This document shows positions 9,627 to 58,270 of a stretch of DNA of 64,000 bases, in pieces (positions within the stretch are counted from its first letter, which is position 1; the number at the start of each line of letters is the position of its first letter). Source of the stretch: a virus; IMG/VR virus record IMGVR_UViG_3300020045_002743, positions 1-64,000 of that record. One strand, given 5' to 3'. A program made the translations under genes and the position numbers. The notes beneath the pieces are model-generated. The model was not told the origin of the DNA. It did no database searches and worked only from the letters and a program-made list of their open reading frames with translations.

Positions 9627-9797
9627 TCACCTATCAGAAACACAATTCCTAGAGGATTAAACAATGTCAATTGTTCCTGTGACGCTTCAAATCTTAGATC
9701 AACTTTTTAGCTTCCCAACAGGTTTTGACATTATTGCTTCTTGTATTGAAGATTGGTGGGAATCTTATAAATTCATCCAGAGATTGAAAATAGTAGG

Positions 9798-9826
9798 TTG
9801 ACAACAGCATGGGTCTGTATTAATAT
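9798..9826 (+). promoter_or_regulatory. sigma70-type promoter
   Basis: TTGACA-17 bp-TAATAT. Confidence 0.7.
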
Positions 9827-10600
9827 CTCTATACAGACAAAGCAAACGAGAATAATAGCCATGAGGCAATTAAGAACTCCAATGTTTACAATGCTTGATG
9901 GCTCAGAGGTGGTGTTGTTCCAACCCTATTGGAATGCTTATATACGTAAACTGTTCTTAGTGCTTGGTGACCACGGGATGTATTGTCCTGTGGTTTTTGA
10001 TTAATTTAGGAGGTTTTATGCGAGTTAAGGAAATGATTTTATGGTTAGAATCTTTAGATCCTGAGCTAGATGTATATCTTGAAGGGCTAGAGCAATCTTC
10101 TAATCTAAACCCATCTACTAACAGGTTTGAGATCTATCACGAGGAAAGGCTTTTCAATCCTAGCCACTATTCCTATGTAAACCCTAACAAAAAATCTCTT
10201 GTTATTGGTCTAGATGTATGATATGAAAATAGTAGACATCAATTCAGCAGATAAACCCTTGATGACGCTCAAGCAAATAAATGATGCTATCGAAGGCTTT
10301 AAAGTGTTTGCACAATTGAACCATAGCTATTATACTAACCTTATTGAGCAAGGCTTTACAGAAGCTCAAGCGTTGGAAATTGTTAAGGCTTATAAATTCT
10401 AATCAAGGAATAACCCCATGTACTCCCTAAAAGACATTGTACGAATCAATGACATCCTTTCTGAATATCATGGTGTTAAGTGTGTTGTTGTGAAAGTAGG
10501 AAAGAAAAGCTATGATGTAGAGACATTGAACACGAAGACTCGGATTAGAGTGGTGCAAGAGCAGATTATTGGAGCGATTAAAAATAAATCAAAATAGTTG

Positions 10601-10629
10601 TTGACAGTTAGATGTAAGATTGAGATAAT
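10601..10629 (+). promoter_or_regulatory. sigma70-type promoter
   Basis: TTGACA-17 bp-GATAAT. Confidence 0.75.
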
Positions 10630-11600
10630 CATTCCATCGAAACCAAACAGTAAAGGAGTAATACCTATGAAAATCACAAAATCTGATGTTTATCAGGCTG
10701 CTGGTGATAAGGGAATCTCAGTATTGGATGCATTGAGTATGATGCAAGCAGTGGCAGTTAAAATGAATGATGAATCTATTCTTGAATCACTGTGCGCTAT
10801 TAAATATGAACTTCTCTTTGGTGCTGATCAATGAAATACGAAATAAATGTTTATATGAAAGCTTTCAATCAAAATAAAGCTATGGAACATAGGATCATGG
10901 GTGTTTTAGAAAACCTTACAAAAGAATTTAAAGTTGCTAAACTGCATATAGAGTGGTCAAAACTATATAACAAAGCTCAACTACCTAATTAAATAAAACG
11001 GTACACAACTTAAAAAGGACTCTAAATATGCGAGTAAAAAGCCTTATATCAGAAAACAATTTGTTAACTAAAGATAGGTATTATAATGTTATTAGAAATC
11101 TTTTTAATACCTTTGACAATCACCCTATAGTTTTGGGTGACAACGGCATTCATATTATGTTGTTTGATGATGAATTCAGTAAATGTCCTAATTGTAATGG
11201 TTTAGGTGTTATAGGTGGGTTTGTAAACTCTGAATCAGGCTACGAAACAGAAGATTGTGGTGAGTGCTGAATGCTTAGGTTCTTTTATTCCTGATTTATT
11301 GGAGAACAATCATGACACACAATAGAGAAGACGTTACAGATTATGGTATATTGTTTATCATTGGCTTTATTGCTTTGTGTGCTGTTGTAGAGGGGTTCTT
11401 ATACTACTCCCTAGATTTGAATACCTAATGAAACAAAGGCTTTAGCTATTGATTTGGAGTAATCAAAAACTCCAAAGGAGATTATATGCAACCTAAGTGT
11501 GCAAAGCTTAAGGAAGTGATGGGGTTGAAAAAGGCTTTCATTAGAGTGTTTGGAGAGGAACAGCTAGTTAAAGACCACGATACAGCAATGAGGAATAGGA

Positions 11601-13950: not shown

Positions 13951-16900
13951 CTAACGGTATACACCACACCTCGTATTTTAAGTTCCAATTAGTTTCTGCT
14001 TCATTCAATCTTAGTGCCTCAGCTTCTGCTGCCCATTCATCGTCTTCATAAAAAGTAATGAAGTCATTTACATTAGCTTGCTTATGATTCTTAAAACCCC
14101 ACTCCACTTGTGTATCATGATATTCAATCTGATCTGGACATGAGTTCACTGCAACGTGGTAAGGCCATAGAATCCCATCTTGTGTATATACCCTTTCCTT
14201 CCACTTAAAGAATAGGAATGATTTTTCTTCATAAACACAAGGGTAAGCCCATCCGTAGCTCTCATGAATACCTGTTGTGTATTGTTTACCTTTATACTCA
14301 AAAGGCTTCATTGTGTGCCCCAATCTTTTTGATACGCCCAGTCTTGGAATGCCTCAGTAATACTATCACCAAAACCAACAGCGTTAAAAATATACCACTC
14401 CCTGTCGGGAGAATCTTTGCCAGGTTTCTGGTTATCTGGCACAACACAAATATAGCAGTGTTGTTTGTATGGGTAATGTGTTTTTGGAATTTTACTAATT
14501 CTTGGTTTCATTGAATAAACACCCCACTAGAACACTTCTCACAACCCTTATACCAAATCATGTAATTACCTCCTTTCCAATAAGATTTAGGAATTCCTTT
14601 GTGTTGGCATTTGAAACATGTAAGTTCTTTCATTCAGCCTTCCACCTAATCAACAATTCCTTCTTCCCGTTATACTTATCTCTGTCCGCATGTATCTCAT
14701 TAACTGTCACCACCTCTATATCAACATTGTCTAACAATATACTGACAAAGCAATATCCACCCTTCTCAATGTGATGAGTACGTGTACGGATACCTAAGCT
14801 GTTGAGTGCAGCTAGGAGTGATACCCCATCTTTGTTAGCCACAAACTCACCGTCACCAAAGTCCACTACAACGTGTTTATCTGTAAGTTCATGGTGATGG
14901 TTACAATGTGTGTATTCTGTGCTTCCCTTTGGTTCTGTCATTCCCACCTACCTCTACGGTAATACACTTTAGGCTTCTTCTTAATATCCTCAGCATCAAT
15001 CTTGTCGCCAACCCACTTGATAAGGGCTTCCTCAATCTGTAATCTGATTCTCTCTTCAATTGTAGCAAGCTTAATTTCGATTTCCATTAATCCTCCACCC
15101 AATGCTCGCAAGTCTCAGTGTCGTATTTGGTTTTCATTGCATTATCGACTGCCTCTTCAAAGCTTTGACCAGAAGAGTTCAACCAACCAATGTTTTCATC
15201 ATACCACACAACTCTGTGTTCTTTGTAAGTTGAGTTTCTATCAAAGTCAACCATTACAGAAGCCCAACGTTCTCTTTCTGTTAACCATTCCATGCGAATA
15301 AGATTATTACTTTCCATAACTCCTCCTCAAGAATAAGCCAAACATTTGTCACAAGGACATTTAGTATTCAACACTTTTTCCAGTTCTGTATTTTTAATAC
15401 ACATTATCTTTTTAAGATTAACTTCTGTAAAAGGATAGTATGGCATCTTCTCACCACCTTGTACAACTTTATATCGTGCAATACTCTCTTCCATTTCTTT
15501 GCGAAGTTGTTTAAGTTGATCCTCTACGTTTTGCATACGATCTTCTAGTGTAATATTCATTAGTTCCATTCCTTAAGAAGTTTATAAATTCTTTCATATA
15601 GATATGTCTCACTCACACTTTGTCCATATGCCAGTTCACCAAGAAGTTCTATAGCCTCTCCTCCAGCATTTAGAGCTTCTAGAGTTGGCATACCTTGAAG
15701 GCTTAAGTCCATCTGACTTTGGAAATAATCTACAGAACATTCGTACTTTGTCATACTCATTGCTCTAGCATCCCCTGTATTTTCTTTTTAATGTAATCAT
15801 ATGCAGATTGTTTAGCTTCATCAAGGGTGTAGAGAGAATCCACGTAGTCTTGGTTGAAATACAGACAATAGGTGTCGTATTCTTTCCAAGACTTCCACTC
15901 AATTTGAAAATCACCTAATGATGTATTACATTTAACATGATCATAGAAACTATTCTTACCTCCATCTGGTTTAGCTGGTTCTGTCCATTCAAACTTTTTA
16001 AGTTTAATCATTTCTCACTAAGCTCCTTTAAAGCATGTTGATATCTACCAAATATAATATCAAAAGTACCTTCAACACTCAAGTTATTTGGTTTAGGTTC
16101 TCCACGAAGACACATCTTCCCACTGTTGTGCTTAGACTCCTCACAACATTTATGTTTAGGTCTTTTACCACATGTGCATAGATGGTCAGTCATCAGTAAA
16201 AGTCCCTTGGATGTTTATATAACTGATAGCCCCTGGCAACCTTACATTAAACTTCAGTATTTGATTGCCATTACTGTCCCTAATAAAATCAGCACTAAGT
16301 ATTTCAGCATCTGGGTACATTTGTTTTGCTAGTTCTAAAGCGGAAGTCTTATTCATTTATTTCTCCAACTTTATAAAATTATCAGGCTTCATACAAGATT
16401 TATAAATTCCTCGCTCTGTCGCTGGTACACCACCAGCTGCTTCACATCTATAAAACTGTTTTGAGCTTTCTCTGACACCCATACCCGCTAGTATCAAAAA
16501 TATAATAACAAATGCTATCAATACCTTAAACATAAATCTCTCCTATTTAAATTTCTTGGTTTTACCAACTCCACGATTATAGCTAGTCTTCTTCCACTTG
16601 TACAGCAATCTTTCCTCTTCTCTCTGATAATCATCAGCATATTTTAAATATTGACTTGCTAGAAGGGGTGTATCTGCATTATTTGGGTTAAGGGAAGCTG
16701 CTAGCTTTCTGTAGTAGGCTGGAACACTTGGTTGTTTTAAGTCACGCTTTGACATTAAGGTCGTTCAACTCCAGCACTAATTCAAGAACCACTAAAGCTA
16801 ATTCTTTGTTTTTATATTGACTGCGTTCACTGGTACTAACAATCCCCAATCCCGATGGTTTGTGCATAATCAAAACACCTGAGCTTGTGAGACCTACGTG

Positions 16901-22849: not shown

Positions 22850-23074
22850 TTATTTTAGAATTATTTCAATCTTGGGTGTTTTCCTCATCTGCCTGTCTTG
22901 TACTGACATTTCAGATAGAGATTGTACCTTGAGTTGATAGCCCGTTTCAGGAATCAATTCTACAACCCTATCAACCAACCAGTTCATACCCTCTTCTGTG
23001 TATGGTATTTTATTATCTTTTATAAGCTTAAAGATAATATCATTTATGTACTCTTCTGTAATCATTTTAGTCAC
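22850..23074 (-). CDS. 74-aa protein resembling the tail sheath C-terminal segment
   Basis: IIFKLIKDNKIPYTEEG vs sheath IYFRLINSLKIPMTNPG; GY...DRQMR vs GW...MRAAR. Confidence 0.65.
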   Translation of the reverse strand: MTKMITEEYINDIIFKLIKDNKIPYTEEGMNWLVDRVVELIPETGYQLKVQSLSEMSVQDRQMRKTPKIEIILK

Positions 23075-27600: not shown

Positions 27601-29029
27601 AGGTCTGTTTCACCAAATACTCTAGTGCTTTGTGGTAAGGCATGTTCAGGATATTTGGGCGCATAAGTAGCTCTTGGATCGTTCCCGACGAGCGATCTGG
27701 ATCAAGACCAACAAGGAATCGTATCTCGTTTTCTTTCATGTGTTTTCCTCGGTAACTTCTCTCTCTTTATTCATTTATGCAGCCCACCTTTGATAAAAAA
27801 TAGAGCAGAACCTACGAATACGGGTGCTAGTACAAAAGTTATTACGCAGGCCTTAGTGAAGGCAAAAATGCCTACAGATAACAAGCCTGAAACAATAAAA
27901 GACTGTAAGCCCTCCAGAATACATACAATCAGTCCTATATGCCACCACATCAAACAAAAATCCCAAACTTCTTTAAACCAATTTTCAAAATATTTCATCA
28001 AACCCTCCAGCAGCTATTCATATTGTAAGGTGGTACCAAATAGATTTCAGCAAATGCGTTCGCAGATTCTCTTGTGGAGAACTCAGCTAGCTTCTCACGT
28101 TTGTAAAATATTGCAAAGCGTTTCTTACCATAGGGTTTTTCTATTAGCTTAAGTTTTGTCATTGATCTTCTCCTGTGTATACGGAGATATGTGAACCTTT
28201 ATAGCAGTGATCTTCAAAATATTTAGGATCGGTATCTGTGATTCTAGAATCCTCTGCCCATTTCTTTAGGGCGTAAATTTCAATACTATTTTCCGCAACT
28301 ATGTTTAAAGTGCCGTCTGCACTCATTACTACTTTCATTTAGTCATATCCTCAATACGCTTACGCATATGTTCGTCTGTATCATACCAACCTGACAGGTA
28401 AGCTGTAAATCCACTTTCTTGCCACGAGCAATGACCGTTTGGTTTATTTTCTGGGTCATACCCGTAACACTTGCGGCTGATACCACGGATCTCTGATAGC
28501 TGATCAAGCATGTTCATGCCCGATACTCCACGCGAAAGTTCTCAATAATTATTTCATCCCCACACTGCACATCACCATTATCTAGATGTGCAAGCTCTGT
28601 ATATTCTCGTGAGAGAAATAGTTTCTTGTTACAATCACAAGAATAGTTCCCATCTTCATACATATACTCTGCACCGCCTTCCCAATGACCGTAACCGAAA
28701 TCCTGTTCGTGATAGTATGACTTACCTTCATACACAAGATCCATACAAGCTATGGTTCGATTGTGAATATCCCCCTCTCCTTCGTCGGTTACTATAGTGC
28801 CTTTTGTCCAATTTCTAGCTTTCTGTACTAAATCTTTCATTTCAGACTCTGTTTCAAAGTAATAGTACAGGGTGTCATCATGATTTTTGGTTGGTGGGTA
28901 TTCTTTAATAAACTCTTTCTGTCCACCACCCCAAGCCTTTACCATATAATTCTGCATTTCTTCTCTCCTTCTATATTTGATAGTTAAAGAATAACACAAG
29001 GTCTTTAGGAAAGCAACAGATTTTATCAA
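24680..29029 (-). other. Cluster of about 18 small minus-strand hypothetical genes
   Basis: Contiguous ORFs; 28514 ORF has EDGNYSCDCN motif; 27771 ORF is hydrophobic. Confidence 0.7.
28988..29016 (-). promoter_or_regulatory. Leftward promoter
   Basis: TTGCTT-17 bp-TATTCT on the minus strand. Confidence 0.6.
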
Positions 29030-29040
29030 ATAAATAAATC

Positions 29041-29135
29041 TTTACACAAACTCAAATACGTGTTACAATGTTGTATAGAAAGAGAGAAAATAAATTTAAA
29101 TCTCTATTGCTTTATAAGATTTTATGCTGTACAAT
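29041..29135 (+). promoter_or_regulatory. Two tandem rightward promoters
   Basis: TTTACA-17-TACAAT (29041-29069) and TTGCTT-17-TACAAT (29107-29135). Confidence 0.7.
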
Positions 29136-29141
29136 TTATTC

Positions 29142-29434
29142 ATCTACTAAAAATGTAGATCGGAACAGAGAGATATGTAGCACTCACCGTACTGTTCTTA
29201 AAAGCCTATGAAGAGAACCATGAAGGGCTAACCCGAGTAATTAGAGCTTGTTGAGGGGAAGTGGCTAGACTTACAATCTTAGGATTGTCTAGGTAAGACA
29301 AGCAATTCATCTGGCCTCAAGCCAGCCTAGTGACATCTCAATTAGGATGTACAAAGGGGAGAAGTTATGCTAAGGTTACTCCTAATGCAAATTAAATTTT
29401 GTATGGGGTTCCCTAGGCTAGTTGTAACTTCTCC
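29142..29434 (+). ncRNA. Candidate structured RNA or long leader
   Basis: ORF-free; several helices, including GGAGAAGTTA/TAACTTCTCC. Confidence 0.4.
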
Positions 29435-29503
29435 TAGCTCAAAACTCATTAGGATATTATATAACTATATCTACTTAGTAAGAATAGAGATAAGGAGAAA
29501 GAG

Positions 29504-29686
29504 ATGTATGAAGGTTTAGAAGAGCTAAAGAAAGATTATAATAAATACAATCCATACTTAGCAACAGGAGAAGATCTTGATCGTATAGGCGAGCTTTGTG
29601 GTTTAAAAAGAGAATATAATGAATGGCTAGAATCTGATAGGGATTTCAGGATTAGGGTTTTATATGAGTTAGTTAAATATATTTAA
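29504..29686 (+). CDS. 60-aa protein resembling the baseplate wedge helical motif
   Basis: ATGEDLDRIGELCGLKR...ESDRDFRIR; AAGGAG RBS. Confidence 0.7.
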   Translation: MYEGLEELKKDYNKYNPYLATGEDLDRIGELCGLKREYNEWLESDRDFRIRVLYELVKYI

Positions 29687-29694
29687 CTTAGCTA

Positions 29695-29722
29695 TTGACA
29701 TCTGTTATTCAATAGTGATACT
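29695..29722 (+). promoter_or_regulatory. sigma70-type promoter
   Basis: TTGACA-16 bp-GATACT. Confidence 0.6.
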
Positions 29723-29755: not shown

Positions 29756-29932
29756 ATGGGCGAAGCTGTATTTTGCTCGTATTGTGGCGAGCTAGAAAGT
29801 GATTGTGTATGTGATGTTGTAATTGAGTATCTAGAAGACAATGATCCTGACTTCAAATTTGAATGGGCTCATGAGTCAACGACAGAATTGAACTCAACAT
29901 CATTTAGAATTATTTTACCAATTTATGAATAA
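29756..29932 (+). CDS. 58-aa acidic Cys-motif protein (not in ORF track)
   Basis: MGEAVFCSYCGELESDCVCD...; AAGGAG RBS. Confidence 0.65.
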   Translation: MGEAVFCSYCGELESDCVCDVVIEYLEDNDPDFKFEWAHESTTELNSTSFRIILPIYE

Positions 29933-30396: not shown

Positions 30397-30470
30397 GCCC
30401 TTCTCGTATATTGATATTACATCTGTTTTGTAATCAGAATAAGGCAGTTTGATTCTGTCGTGGGGCACCA
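30397..30470 (+). tRNA. tRNA-Thr(TGT), somewhat degenerate
   Basis: GCCCTTC/GTGGGGC acceptor, TT TGT AA loop, TTTGATT T-loop, ACCA end. Confidence 0.75.
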
Positions 30471-31619: not shown

Positions 31620-31961
31620 ATGACAATGCTCACTGTAAAACGTGGGGACACTTTCGATCAACTTGTCAGTCTCCCCGATACATTTGCTGATGGCTATTTT
31701 GTAGGCTGGACAATCACATCACAGATTAGGACATCACAATACTCAAGGCTAATTTCTGAGTTTAGTCCTACATGGCTTGACCCTGTAACCACAAGAGTAG
31801 TTAAGCTTTTCATGCTTGATACACAATCTTGGCCTATTGGTATATTACAATTAGATATTCAGTTTACAAGAAACTCTGATTCCTACGTTATTAGTACACA
31901 AACTCTTGATGTAACAGTAACCAAGGATATTACCTTTCCAACTCCAGTGGTGTCTGTGTGA
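31620..31961 (+). CDS. Virion accessory/adaptor protein (Ig-like)
   Basis: KRGDTF start, beta-rich, coupled to the fibre gene. Confidence 0.55.
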   Translation: MTMLTVKRGDTFDQLVSLPDTFADGYFVGWTITSQIRTSQYSRLISEFSPTWLDPVTTRVVKLFMLDTQSWPIGILQLDIQFTRNSDSYVISTQTLDVTVTKDITFPTPVVSV

Positions 31962-34456
31962 TTGAAGTAGAATTTGCTGGTCAGTATTTCAAAGGTGATA
32001 AAGGTTTAAACTGGAAAGCTGCATATGTTAACACAACAGCTTATCTAAAAGACGATGCTGTATTTTATAATGGATCGAGTTATGTAGCTCTCCAAAACAG
32101 TACAGGAAATCTTCCAACTAATACCACTTTTTGGAGCATCCTTGCTCAGAAGGGAGATAACGGTTCCGGTTCCTCTGTCACATCTGTGAACGCTAAGATT
32201 GGAGATGTTGTCCTTGTTCCTTCTGATATTGGTGCTGCTACGTCGGCTCAAGGTGCATTAGCGAACACTGCTGTACAACCATCTGGTCTGAACAAAGCTG
32301 CTGTAGGATTATCTAACGTAGATAATACCTCAGATATTAATAAACCAATCTCTACAGCTGTTCAGTCTTCGTTAGATTTGAAAGCCCCTCTTAACTCTCC
32401 GTCCTTTACAGGTACTGTCACCGGTCTTACAAAAGCAACAGTTGGGCTAGATAATATCGACAATACTGCCGATATTGATAAACCTCTAAGTACCCTACAG
32501 ACTAACGCATTATCTCTAAAGGCACCCCTAAATTCCCCAACGTTTACGGGTACAGTGGGCGGGCTCAATAAGACGTTCGTAGGTCTTGGTTCAGTTGATA
32601 ACACTTCTGACTTAAATAAACCAGTAAGTACTGCACAACAAGCTGCACTTAATCTGAAGGCCAATGTAGAATCTCCAGCATTCACCGGGAACGTTATTGG
32701 CGTCGATAAGACAATGGTTGGCTTGTCTAATGTGGATAACACCACAGATGCAAACAAACCTATCAGTACAGCCCAAGCTGCTGCCTTGGCATTGAAAGCC
32801 CCACTGGATTCACCAGCTTTTACTGGCACGGTTACAGGATTAACTAAATCAACTGTTGGTTTAGGAAATGTTGACAATACTAGTGATCTGAATAAGCCTA
32901 TCTCAACGGCTGCTCAGGCGGCATTGAATCTAAAAGCTAACTTAGCTTCACCTACGTTCACAGGAACTGTAGGCGGGATTACAGCTAGTATGGTCGGTCT
33001 TGGTAATGTCAATAACACAGCAGACACAACCAAACCAATTTCAACAGCAACTCAAAGCGCATTAGACCTTAAGGCTCCTTTAGCCTCACCAACCTTTACA
33101 GGAACAGTGAGTGGTATTTCTGCCGCCATGGTTGGCCTAGGTAATGTAAATAATACGAGTGATGCTAACAAACCAGTAAGCTCAGCTACCCAAACAGCTC
33201 TGAACCTTAAGGCTGATTTGACAACGCTAGCTAATTATCGGCTACTTACAAACAACGCATTTACTGGAACATCTGCTGCCACTGCATTTCCTACATCTGT
33301 TGGACAATTAGCACCAACCACTAGCACAGCAATGACTTGGACACCTCTAACAGCCTCACAAGCTGTAGTCCCAGCCATGCTAACCACTCTTAACATTAAT
33401 ACAGCAACAGCTAACACTGTCACTAACAGTCATGGTATTGGTGAGCTTGTTATTACAACTGTTCAAGGTGGTGGCTATTGTGACCTGTCTTTTGCAAAAG
33501 AATATCGTTTTGCAATGCAGAATGCTAGTACAGCTGGTCAGTTCATCGGAACTAAATATGTATTTGAACCAGACAGCACTAACAGTGGTACGCTAAATAC
33601 TTTTATCACTGAACAGTTTGATAATATGACAACAAGCGTTACGTGGATTAGTAATTTCCAACGTAATTTCCTTGATCCTCGTATGGTTACATATCATGCT
33701 GGAGGACAAGTAGCGTTTGCTCAAATTATTACTGGTAATTACACGTTCACAGATAAAGATTCTGGTAAGACATTTGTCTATAATTCAGCATCTCTTGGGA
33801 CGATGACATTTGGTGCTGGTATTACCAATGGGTTTAAAGTTACAATTAAGCATGGTTTAGGTGGTGCTGGTGTAACACTTGTTTCCTCATCAAGAACAAT
33901 AGTAAACAACGCAACCCGTATTGCTTCTTTGTTTGCACTTGATGAAGTCACTGTTGAGGCTTTAGATCCAGGTGGATTCTTAACTTTAAACTGGAAAGAT
34001 CCCCTTCCAACTTATTCTGTTAATAATACAACCTCTATCACCAGAAACGTAACTACCAACAGTTCTGTATCAGATCTTACTGTAAACCTTGAAGCCAATT
34101 CTGTTTATGAAGTAAGTTTTAATTGTGCCTACACTACAACAGCTACTGCACAAAGTCTGAAACTTGGATATGCGAGTACAGCAACAGGGACTACTTTCCT
34201 ATTTGATGCTGGTGTTCAAATAACTAACGTCGCAGGTACAGCTTCTACAGTATTAGGCCCACTTAATACTACAGCAGCAACAATTGCAGGGACAGCTTCT
34301 GTTGCAAGTGTTGAGCAGAATGCTTTCATACGTGGTAAGATAATCACATCCTCAACTGCTGGTAACTTTGCTATTCAAGTAGGGGCAATCTCTACAGCTA
34401 CCACGCTGACAATAGCAATTGGTAGGGCACCGCTCTTAATCAAGAAGATTAAGTAA
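31958..34456 (+). CDS. Long fibre protein with 46-aa repeats
   Basis: VGLGNVDNTSD.NKP.STA...AL.LKA.L.SP.FTG repeats; beta-rich C-terminus. Confidence 0.85.
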   Translation: MIEVEFAGQYFKGDKGLNWKAAYVNTTAYLKDDAVFYNGSSYVALQNSTGNLPTNTTFWSILAQKGDNGSGSSVTSVNAKIGDVVLVPSDIGAATSAQGALANTAVQPSGLNKAAVGLSNVDNTSDINKPISTAVQSSLDLKAPLNSPSFTGTVTGLTKATVGLDNIDNTADIDKPLSTLQTNALSLKAPLNSPTFTGTVGGLNKTFVGLGSVDNTSDLNKPVSTAQQAALNLKANVESPAFTGNVIGVDKTMVGLSNVDNTTDANKPISTAQAAALALKAPLDSPAFTGTVTGLTKSTVGLGNVDNTSDLNKPISTAAQAALNLKANLASPTFTGTVGGITASMVGLGNVNNTADTTKPISTATQSALDLKAPLASPTFTGTVSGISAAMVGLGNVNNTSDANKPVSSATQTALNLKADLTTLANYRLLTNNAFTGTSAATAFPTSVGQLAPTTSTAMTWTPLTASQAVVPAMLTTLNINTATANTVTNSHGIGELVITTVQGGGYCDLSFAKEYRFAMQNASTAGQFIGTKYVFEPDSTNSGTLNTFITEQFDNMTTSVTWISNFQRNFLDPRMVTYHAGGQVAFAQIITGNYTFTDKDSGKTFVYNSASLGTMTFGAGITNGFKVTIKHGLGGAGVTLVSSSRTIVNNATRIASLFALDEVTVEALDPGGFLTLNWKDPLPTYSVNNTTSITRNVTTNSSVSDLTVNLEANSVYEVSFNCAYTTTATAQSLKLGYASTATGTTFLFDAGVQITNVAGTASTVLGPLNTTAATIAGTASVASVEQNAFIRGKIITSSTAGNFAIQVGAISTATTLTIAIGRAPLLIKKIK
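32300..33215 (+). repeat. About 6.6 tandem 138-nt (46-aa) coding repeats
   Basis: Visible in translation; nucleotide copies diverged. Confidence 0.85.
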
Positions 34457-56016: not shown

Positions 56017-57459
56017 ATGGCGGGTATTTCTGACCAAGGCTTTACAATTAAAAGAATGACAGAGATACTTTCAGACTTACGTGCTGAAGCTACCTCTTTA
56101 TTTCAAGATTTAGTTGAACCCGGTGATCAGGTCGATACATCCAATAGCTCAGCATTGGGTAGGCTTGTAGCGCTTGTAAGCCCAAGCTTAGCAGACTTAT
56201 GGGAAGTAGCACAAGCTGATTACCAAGCATTTGATCCTAATTCTGCAACAGGCATTGCTCTAGATAACCTTGTAGCCCTTGGGGGTATTACAAGACAAGA
56301 ACAGACATACTCTACTGCACAAGTGATCATATCAGGAGATAATGGTACTTTGGTGTCATCAGGTCTGACTGTAGGCAGCTCAATTGACAGTAGTCAGTGG
56401 ACAATTCTGTCTCCTGTAGCGCTTTCTCCTTCTCAAGCTGTCGGTGTTACGGTTACTCCTCTAGTCGTCTCAGATAGCACAGTTTATAGCATAACTTACA
56501 CATCTATCAGCACTGCTAATACGATCAATTTCACAAGTGATGCTTCTGCTACAGCTGCTGAGATTGTTGCTGGGTTGAATGCTGTAATTATTGCAAGCCA
56601 CCCAAGTCTTGTTAGCAGCATTGAAGGTACGTCTCTTAAAATTAGTCGTGTTGATGAATTCTCTGCTGTAACTTTCACCGTAACCCCTAATCTTGGTATT
56701 ACTAAAGTACAAAAACTTGGTGAGATTCAGAGCAGTGTAGTGGGCGAGGTTAATGCTGAAGCTAATACTTTGAATGTTATTCTTACCCCTCAGCTTGGTT
56801 GGGATAACGTTACAAACCCTCAAGCTGCAAGTCCGGGACGTAATCTCGAAACAGATGAAGAACTTCGTCTAAGATTTAGAGAAACTAAATTTGATAGGGC
56901 CTCTAATATTCTCGAAGCTCTTTACTCAGCACTTATTAATCTTGAAGGTGTCGAGGAAGTAAGAATTTACGAGAATGACACAGATGTTGTAGATGCGTTT
57001 GGTGTACCTGCACACAGCTTTATGCCAATTGTTCTTGGTGGTGTTAGTATTGATATTGCAAACACCATTTGGGAAAACAAGCCAATGGGTATCAGAAGTT
57101 ATGGTGATACAGTTGTAGTTATCTTTGATACTCAAGGTTTTTCTCATAACATTGGTTTTGAACGTCCTGATCCATTGCCTATATATATTACGATTAATCT
57201 TACTACAGACAGTGAATTTCCGGGTACAGGTGTTGATGATATTAAGTCTGCTTTGATTACATACTTTGATAGTAATCTTGGTATTGGCGATGACGTTATT
57301 TGGAGCAGATTATTTACACCAATTAACACTGTTAAAGGTCACGAGATTGATAGTTTGTTTATTGGTACATCTCCCAGCCCAACAGGTACTGACAGTATTC
57401 CGGTAGCTTTCGACATGATTGCTTCACTATCTTCAGACAATATTATAATCAATACATAA
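56017..57459 (+). CDS. Baseplate J-like wedge protein
   Basis: ATG.ALD.L....G..R, ETDEELR.R, YENDT, PAHS. Confidence 0.88.
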   Translation: MAGISDQGFTIKRMTEILSDLRAEATSLFQDLVEPGDQVDTSNSSALGRLVALVSPSLADLWEVAQADYQAFDPNSATGIALDNLVALGGITRQEQTYSTAQVIISGDNGTLVSSGLTVGSSIDSSQWTILSPVALSPSQAVGVTVTPLVVSDSTVYSITYTSISTANTINFTSDASATAAEIVAGLNAVIIASHPSLVSSIEGTSLKISRVDEFSAVTFTVTPNLGITKVQKLGEIQSSVVGEVNAEANTLNVILTPQLGWDNVTNPQAASPGRNLETDEELRLRFRETKFDRASNILEALYSALINLEGVEEVRIYENDTDVVDAFGVPAHSFMPIVLGGVSIDIANTIWENKPMGIRSYGDTVVVIFDTQGFSHNIGFERPDPLPIYITINLTTDSEFPGTGVDDIKSALITYFDSNLGIGDDVIWSRLFTPINTVKGHEIDSLFIGTSPSPTGTDSIPVAFDMIASLSSDNIIINT

Positions 57460-57469
57460 GGGGTGGTAC

Positions 57470-58270
57470 ATGGCTATCACGCCTTTTGAACAAATCGATT
57501 ATCTTTCTGAAGCTCGTGAACGAGTGACGGAGCAGTTCGTAGGAAAGGAAGTTTTTGATAAATATCTTCAACTCCTTATTAATGCTCAAGTAGAAATACA
57601 AAAAGTATTTAAAGACCTTATGCAATTAAGAAGTCTTGATACAGCTACTGGAGCCCAACTAGATGTTATTGGTAGAATTGTTGGTCAAGAAAGAATCTTA
57701 CTGAATGCTGACTTCTACAACTTCTTTGGTTTCCAAGGTGCAATAAAAGCATCTAGTTTTGGTGAGGTGGGTAATCCATCCGTAGGTGGTATGTTCTATG
57801 ATTTTGGTAAACCACTTGGTGGTAATATCGAACTAGACGACGCTACCTACAGACTCTTCATTAAAGCCAAGATTTTCAAGAACACAACATCATCCACACC
57901 AGAAGAATTTCTAGCTGTACTCAACCTTGTTTTCGGGACTGATACAACAGTATTAACAGAAGAGGGAGACGCCTCTATTACTGTATTGTTATCTAGAACC
58001 TTGACTGACTTTGAAAGGGCGCTCCTCTTCTACATCAGTAATGAGCCGGGTTACCCATCAAGACTTATTCCAAAGACGGTGGGTGTGAGAATAAACTTTG
58101 GTGAGTATGATGGAGACAACTTCTTTGGATTCCAGGGCGTACCTAATGCTAAGGGGTTTGGAGAATTTACAGGAAGCTACGGCTGGGGACTTGGTTACGG
58201 CCTCCACTATGGTGACAGCGATTATGCAACAGTGAGTGGTGGGTACTTCGCCTCACTCTATCAAATTTAA
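57470..58270 (+). CDS. Baseplate wedge protein (DUF2612-like)
   Basis: ATGAQLDVIGRIVG..R, FFGF, LDD.TYR..IKAKI.KN. Confidence 0.8.
   Translation: MAITPFEQIDYLSEARERVTEQFVGKEVFDKYLQLLINAQVEIQKVFKDLMQLRSLDTATGAQLDVIGRIVGQERILLNADFYNFFGFQGAIKASSFGEVGNPSVGGMFYDFGKPLGGNIELDDATYRLFIKAKIFKNTTSSTPEEFLAVLNLVFGTDTTVLTEEGDASITVLLSRTLTDFERALLFYISNEPGYPSRLIPKTVGVRINFGEYDGDNFFGFQGVPNAKGFGEFTGSYGWGLGYGLHYGDSDYATVSGGYFASLYQI

Follow-up and report, generated by a model that had tools for sequence, protein, structure and literature searches.

A 60-residue copy of the baseplate wedge core motif encoded by an accessory gene in uncultured phages of about 90 kb

Introduction

Among the assembly interfaces of contractile tails, tailocins, T6SS and extracellular injection systems, the core of the wedge heterotrimer is the most conserved. 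Its motif is common to J-like and I-like subunits. The large wedge (or triplex) subunit, known as Baseplate_J (PF04865), includes T4 gp6, P2 gpJ, Mu gp47, gp88 of phage P7-1 and GpJ of Wolbachia WO, and carries the motif NP..ATG..LD.IG...G..R, followed by a second block, E(S/T)D..(F/L)R.R. The small triplex subunit (DUF2612, PF11041; Phage_Mu_Gp48, PF10076; Tail_P2_I) includes the N-terminus of T4 gp7, P7-1 gp89 and the pyocin and diffocin proteins of this type, and its two blocks are contiguous or nearly so. In the P7-1 atlas, a helical bundle is shared by gp88-a, gp88-b and gp89 (PMC13338283). The loop between the two blocks is the site of the J-protein insert, the ‘wing’ domain (PMC10996793).

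Here we describe a gene for a 60-aa protein that carries both blocks in miniature. It lies in a window (the whole stretch of DNA analysed, 64,000 nucleotides) that makes up the first 64 kb of a complete 91,262-bp IMG/VR virus record, IMGVR_UViG_3300020045_002743. The complete genome, that of an uncultured phage with a contractile tail, is referred to as G000.

Results

The mini-wedge gene and its surroundings

Direct reading of the sequence upheld the initial annotation of a 60-aa open reading frame with a strong ribosome-binding site. The gene, its parts and the two full-length bearers of the motif in the same window are the following:

29504..29686, plus strand: mini-wedge gene, 60 aa (P0001), ATG start
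29492..29497, plus strand: Shine-Dalgarno sequence AAGGAG, 6 nt before the ATG of the mini-wedge gene
29546..29611, plus strand: block 1, residues 15-36, YNPYLATGEDLDRIGELCGLKR; aligns with J 72-93 and with residues 57-76 of the DUF2612 protein
29612..29629, plus strand: variable-length loop, residues 37-42, between R36 and E43
29630..29656, plus strand: block 2, residues 43-51, ESDRDFRIR; aligns with J 277-286 (ETDEELRLR) and with small-subunit residues 124-135
56017..57459, plus strand: baseplate J, large triplex subunit, homologue of P7-1 gp88; full-length bearer of both blocks
57470..58270, plus strand: DUF2612 small triplex subunit (gp89-like); full-length bearer of the motif

Immediately to the left of the mini-gene is a divergent region, which separates a leftward block of small genes (13.4-29.0 kb) from a rightward block. 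After the mini-gene, the rightward block comprises a 58-aa Cys-rich gene, tRNAs, two fibre genes, and the genes for terminase, portal, capsid, sheath (DUF3383) and baseplate; baseplate J lies about 26 kb downstream. A promoter scan gave as many sites as expected from shuffling and no convincing sigma-70 promoter immediately before the mini-gene. Near the locus, Rfam detected tRNAs only. A fourth tRNA-like Rfam match (43 bits), which ARAGORN does not report, is found at 30397-30467, between tRNA-Asn and tRNA-Arg.

Relationship to the J protein and the small triplex subunit of the same phage

The J protein of the window is closely homologous to P7-1 gp88 (Pakpunavirus; E 1e-108). As judged by J, the closest cultured phage is Pseudomonas phage vB_PsaM_M1 (Ounavirinae), hereafter M1. 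When the mini-protein was compared with J by BLASTP, residues 6-37 matched J 63-94 with 12 identities in 32 positions (38%; E 5e-5), and residues 42-51 matched J 277-286 with an E value of 0.074. The two blocks, described from the outset as lying about 190 aa apart in J, are indeed separated in this manner. The counts of 9 identities in 22 positions given initially for block 1, both with J and with the protein encoded at 57470, are also right by direct reading; BLASTP of the mini-protein against the latter protein yielded no match.

Pairwise comparison within one genome deserves a cautious reading. When small open reading frames were searched against large ones with single sequences, the match to J had an E value of 0.002 among some 700 small queries, which is the level expected by chance. 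Because the match to J does not rise above chance once all queries are counted, its significance rests on the family profile, on profile-profile comparison and on the fold search. The profile of the small-protein family described below was run against all 847 open reading frames (at least 30 aa) of the genome. Besides the mini-protein itself, it matched only J (E 2.6e-5) and the DUF2612 protein (E 1.5e-4), and the next-best frame had an E value of 0.32. In M1 and in two relatives (G001 and G002, described below), the profile likewise matches, the mini-protein aside, only J and the small subunit. The family profile detects the 57470 protein, for which BLASTP gave no match. In Pfam, the 60-aa protein has no match at E <= 1.

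A family of small proteins and its distant homologues

A HMMER search against 1.8 billion cluster representatives retrieved seven further small proteins, and a profile search extended the family to 27 clusters of 39-96 aa (most of them 58-78 aa), several of which are on contigs of 89-93 kb. In an alignment of 26 members, five residues are invariant (L25, D26, R36, E43 and D45) and eight are nearly so (K14, N16, P17, A20, G22, I28, G33 and R49), while the first 13 residues and the C-terminal tail are variable. The loop from R36 to E43 is the sole internal site of length variation, with 6-11 residues. Most members are acidic, with a pI of about 4.3-5 and a net charge between −3 and −9, which argues against DNA binding. 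About 26 clusters retain an intact frame, a start preceded by a ribosome-binding site and all five invariant residues, with identities as low as 36%. The family is conserved in an uncultured clade of phages of about 90 kb, related to Ounavirinae and Pakpunavirus.

The longer proteins matched by the profile in a database of 5.8 billion sequences are J-like, Wolbachia WO GpJ being an example. The clearest pairwise match is a Mu gp48-like protein of 298 aa (E 5e-11, 43% identity over 58 aa), in which both blocks are contiguous. When the family was compared by hhalign with Wolbachia WO GpJ and with an alignment of small wedge subunits, the probabilities were 95.7% and 97.7%, respectively; the target alignments include proteins first found with the same profile, and the comparison is therefore not fully independent. 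In 50,697 phage records, weak tblastn matches fell nearly all inside genes annotated as baseplate proteins. Pfam was less responsive: none of the 26 members matches Baseplate_J at E <= 10, and three of them touch DUF2612 (PF11041), with a best E value of 0.08.

One longer protein (P0030; 393 aa, on an ENA contig of 49.9 kb) contains three tandem copies of the module, at residues 154-215, 282-322 and 337-377 approximately. Such an arrangement is consistent with modules that associate with one another, and the protein may be a single-chain analogue of the three-chain core.

Several candidates were discarded. L001 was a chance match of 12 residues within an unrelated protein of 248 aa, and P0004 and P0011 are repetitive proteins that match the N-terminal helix only. 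The ESM Atlas gave no usable match, and megablast of the locus against cultured phages gave none. Scans with P0006, P0008 and P0026 for further gene contexts were also without match; a metagenome scan for such contexts yielded one contig of 1.1 kb, and the last two DNA-pattern scans returned G002 only.

Predicted fold and the part of the wedge that is copied

An AlphaFold2 model built from the family alignment (pLDDT 77) has three helices (residues 3-15, 22-31 and 45-59), the second and third being joined by an extended segment. When the model was compared with 48,161 PDB chains, the ten best matches were all chains of baseplates or contractile injection systems, mostly wedge or triplex subunits, with Z scores of 4.9-6.9. 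Scores of 5-7 are middling for a small helical model, and their weight lies in the enrichment and in the agreement with the sequence evidence. The top matches come from phiCD508, Bas63, a Streptomyces injection system, Mu, A-1(L), PhiTE, Milano and Pam3, and are followed by diffocin, XM1, pyocin R2 and phi812. A second alignment pass gave the same picture, and the matches in BFVD, a set of predicted viral structures, are baseplate proteins. Small subunits align with the model contiguously, over residues 35-105 of their chains approximately, while in large subunits the alignment is interrupted by a gap of about 100-250 residues.

In the J protein of the window, block 1 precedes and block 2 follows an insert of 182 aa (residues 95-276), which by position corresponds to the wing. 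The DUF2612 protein has about 45 additional residues at this point, and by their position they would correspond to fibre-attachment loop 1 of gp89. The insertion hotspot between the blocks, which characterizes the N-terminal core of the wedge, is found in the loop of the mini-family as well. Block 1 of the mini-protein matches the final part of the wedge core-bundle segment. Given the position of the blocks around the J insert and the variation of the loop, the mini-protein comprises this final part together with the first helix of the trifurcation unit.

Comparison with complete subunits delimits the copy further. The mini-protein shares with the large subunit the motif in both blocks and the arrangement of helix, extended segment and helix, and the wing insert of the large subunit sits at its between-block loop. 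Unlike the large subunit, however, it lacks the leading helix of 40-60 residues, the wing and, apart from its first helix, the trifurcation unit, as well as the ring-forming dimerisation domains. With 60 aa it is too short to accommodate wing, trifurcation and dimerisation domains, and hence is not a full-length Baseplate_J protein; the absence of a Pfam Baseplate_J match is a further difference, as is its location as a dispensable gene in an accessory slot 26 kb from the baseplate genes. The small subunit is the closer of the two types in that its blocks are contiguous or nearly so, and in that it provides both the best pairwise match (the gp48-like protein) and the best structural matches. 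Compared with a full DUF2612 or Phage_Mu_Gp48 subunit, the mini-protein is the N-terminal module only: the N-terminal helix, the loops and the C-terminal fibre-binding domain are all missing, and it therefore cannot attach fibres or complete a wedge. The part covered is thus the N-terminal wedge core without its leading long helix, wing insert and C-terminal domains.

Altogether, the view that the protein is a true miniature copy of the wedge (triplex) core motif common to J-like and I-like subunits is well supported, and the resemblance noted in the initial annotation was confirmed by the profile search, hhalign, the pairwise match and the fold search. The domain is known; its stand-alone form is new.

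A gene-precise exchangeable slot

The mini-gene sits in an exchangeable slot, the limits of which coincide with those of the gene, before a conserved promoter and the gene for the Cys-rich protein:

28961..29504, no strand assigned: upstream flank, divergent intergenic region; 97% identical to G002 over 544 nt, up to the ribosome-binding site
29505..29674, plus strand: exchangeable cassette; G002 and environmental contigs have a 157-aa HExxH gene (491 nt) instead, between conserved flanks
29695..29722, plus strand: sigma-70-like promoter for the next gene (TTGACA, 16 nt, GATACT), conserved in G002
29756..29932, plus strand: conserved 58-aa CxxC...CxC gene, always directly downstream of the slot

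Contigs of two metagenome runs retain both flanks (29300-29504 and 29692 onward), which differ at few positions, and carry 491 other letters in place of the 187 nt of the gene. G002, a complete phage of 84.3 kb that was found by a pattern search with the upstream flank, shows the same exchange. Its slot contains a 157-aa open reading frame with an HEVGH motif that starts at the same place as the mini-gene; about five mismatches are found over the last 280 nt of the upstream flank, and identity is restored from AAATATATTTAA (the final codons of the mini-gene) onward, across the promoter and into the Cys-rich gene. A contig from a third public run (X3) breaks off at the ATG of the mini-gene, and its loose end is made of the first codons of the HExxH gene. 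The 491-letter insert of one of the runs (X1) had been considered to encode a member of the mini-family (P0024), as both contigs had a length of 1561. This identity was rejected because in G002 an insert of equal length, between these very flanks, is the HExxH gene, and also because the loose end of X3 reads the first codons of that gene. Nothing from RNA run X16 fell on the locus, which has no bearing on expression.

The HExxH open reading frame (157 aa; G002, L015 3533-4006, minus strand) contains the motif HEVGHHVHH and belongs to no Pfam or PHROG family; it is absent from G000. The Cys-rich gene has its own TTGACA promoter and a ribosome-binding site, AAGGAGTCCAC. Its product has the pattern MGE..FC..CG.....C.C ... 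ILP.Y[DE] and no family match. The order mini-gene then Cys-rich gene is found in three contexts (the window, G001 and contig L006), and in the last two the promoter TTGACA lies inside the last codons of the mini-gene.

While the upstream flank is 97% identical between G000 and G002, the neighbouring genes reach only about 40-60% identity at the protein level. It contains an open reading frame of 50 aa (29367-29519, with a GGGGAG ribosome-binding site) that overlaps the start of the mini-gene, as well as a repeated ATTAGGAT. The 28961-29504 stretch may be a regulatory element or a recombination site.

Baseplates of relatives with and without the mini-gene

G002 provides the most informative comparison. 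Its J protein is 96.9% identical to that of the window phage and its small triplex subunit 97.7%, and no copy of the mini-gene is found anywhere in its genome, where the family profile detects J and the small subunit only. Hence, a baseplate made of triplex proteins that are 97-98% identical can do without the mini-gene, and the mini-protein is an accessory protein encoded in a cassette. G002 speaks against a role as essential baseplate part or assembly factor. The gene is likewise absent from M1, and no homologue of the mini-protein is found among the chains of the P7-1 baseplate structure. In G001 (92.9 kb, with terminal repeats), the J protein is only 50% identical, and the mini-gene is kept at the same place, about 26 kb upstream of J.

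Other proteins of G000 and G002 are more divergent, with about 70% identity in the remaining baseplate proteins and about 40% in those of the head. The 832-aa fibre encoded at 31958-34456 is 97.6% identical. This pattern suggests that the triplex has been recently exchanged, together with a fibre, as a module. The ends of G000 also showed similarity: both (approximately 829-2501 and 89481-91234) match the same G002 segment (approximately 9727-11377), and the open reading frames at 293-568 and 89126-89593 share a stretch of 28 aa that is 96% identical. A diverged terminal repeat or a duplication may explain this similarity.

Other tail-domain mini-genes

The initial annotation had placed the mini-wedge gene in a possible set with a mini-sheath. 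Two other genes of G000 were considered in this regard:

22850-23074, minus strand: mini-sheath
G000 64119-64412, minus strand: second mini-J domain, just beyond the end of the window

Both would be small accessory genes that, like the mini-wedge gene, copy one domain of a contractile-tail protein and lie outside the tail operon. They differ from it in the domain copied, and their co-occurrence with it is not obligatory. BLASTP of the second mini-J domain against J gave no significant match (E 0.8). Single-sequence searches for the mini-sheath and the second mini-J domain found neither in G001, G002 or M1. The corresponding stretches of G000 have no nucleotide match in G002. A weak match to the sheath by the frame at 16186-16356 (minus strand), distinct from the mini-sheath, was at chance level and was discarded.

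G000 thus has three mini-genes, G001 one (the mini-wedge gene) and G002 none. The idea of a set did not stand in an obligate form, as the mini-wedge gene occurs alone in G001 and all three are missing from G002; the three/one/none pattern is compatible with independent accessory genes.

Discussion

A gene that is not needed for the baseplate may be a molecular mimic, and the accessory, cassette-borne nature of the mini-gene makes the mimic functions proposed here more plausible. This nature also speaks for an accessory or conflict role more than for a structural one. The role left to the protein would be that of a putative accessory protein that works via the protein-protein contacts of the wedge core. 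As a non-virion protein acting in the infected cell, it would bind other proteins through the same surface with which wedge subunits assemble into the heterotrimer. Devoid of ring-forming domains, the module would then cap or divert subunits of the J/I type, and the result would be a dominant-negative modulator, or even a poison, of triplex assembly. Heterologous baseplates, those of a co-infecting phage, a prophage or a tailocin, would be the most plausible target. Competitive capping of J/I-type N-termini, leading to interference with triplex assembly or to its modulation, is the explanation that we favour, if only tentatively. It has a weak side: the module lacks the first 40-60 residues, which make up most of the core bundle, and may therefore not bind triplex partners at all. 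In addition, its likeness to foreign wedge proteins is no more than expected of a consensus-like motif.

Capping might also serve the phage itself, if the mini-protein were a non-essential helper, a chaperone or timer that transiently covered the N-termini of J or the small subunit and thus prevented a premature or off-pathway triplex. Fold and motif are indeed common to the mini-protein and both triplex subunits of the genome, the gene lies upstream of the fibre and structural genes on the same strand, and its distance from J is maintained in G001. However, nearly identical triplex proteins do without such a gene in G002, M1 lacks it and the P7-1 baseplate chains include no small homologue; furthermore, a foreign Mu gp48-like protein resembles the mini-protein more closely (43%) than does the J of the same phage (38% over 32 aa). 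We thus regard the helper explanation as unlikely. An alternative that seems unlikely too, if perhaps marginally less so, is an immune decoy that would present the most conserved wedge motif to a host defence sensor of baseplate proteins, occupying the sensor without activating it. A small acidic accessory protein, encoded in a cassette at the boundary of the early and late regions, would suit this task, and in sequence the mini-protein follows the consensus of diverse wedge proteins, not its own J in particular. The unrelated HExxH gene that takes its place in the slot could be another counter-defence gene. Against the decoy, we know of no defence system that senses wedge proteins.

Two further explanations can be given less credit. 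The exchangeable slot, the absence of the gene from close relatives and the partial nature of the domain would be expected of a functionless or selfish relic, a truncated piece of a captured wedge gene that persists where recombination is frequent. Such a relic is quite improbable: intact frames of 39-96 aa, with their starts and invariant residues, have been retained across the clusters of the family in spite of wide divergence, and G001 keeps the gene in place next to a J protein of only 50% identity. A small nucleic-acid-binding regulator, built either as the helix-turn-helix of sigma-70 region 4 or as a helix-extended-helix fold of the SAP/Rho-N kind, is very improbable. The gene adjoins promoters, and the best single PDB-profile match is in fact SigB region 4 (E 0.0013-0.006 over about 20 residues), with a local likeness to region 4.2 that reads LD.IG..(F/C)GL.RE.....E.D; SAP, LEM and Rho-N domains also appear at Z scores of 3.5-4.6. 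However, the would-be recognition helix (R36-E43) varies in length by up to five residues and is modelled as non-helical, extended chain, and the family is acidic. As a consequence of these indels, the modelled conformation and the charge, neither similarity survives. Moreover, the 50 best structural matches include no sigma factor, and Pfam Sigma70_r4 matches no member of the 26; sigma matches over one block only, while wedge proteins match over both.

Returning to interference with the wedge core, a broader version can be envisaged in which the whole mini-protein family would mimic the heterotrimerisation core of contractile tails, its members being either dominant-negative poisons of rival phage or tailocin baseplates or decoys for host sensors, and the gene being one of three independently acquired tail-domain mimic genes. 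So extended, the proposal is less secure than capping itself, and we put it forward as a speculation that is probably too wide.

If the mini-protein acts on foreign machines or immune sensors, it would represent a new class of phage conflict gene. The G000/G002 pair, with a near-identical triplex and a slot occupied by either the mini-gene or the HExxH gene, is a clean natural comparison for experiments. A natural, dispensable copy of the wedge interface, only 60 residues long, would be a ready-made probe or inhibitor of baseplate assembly.
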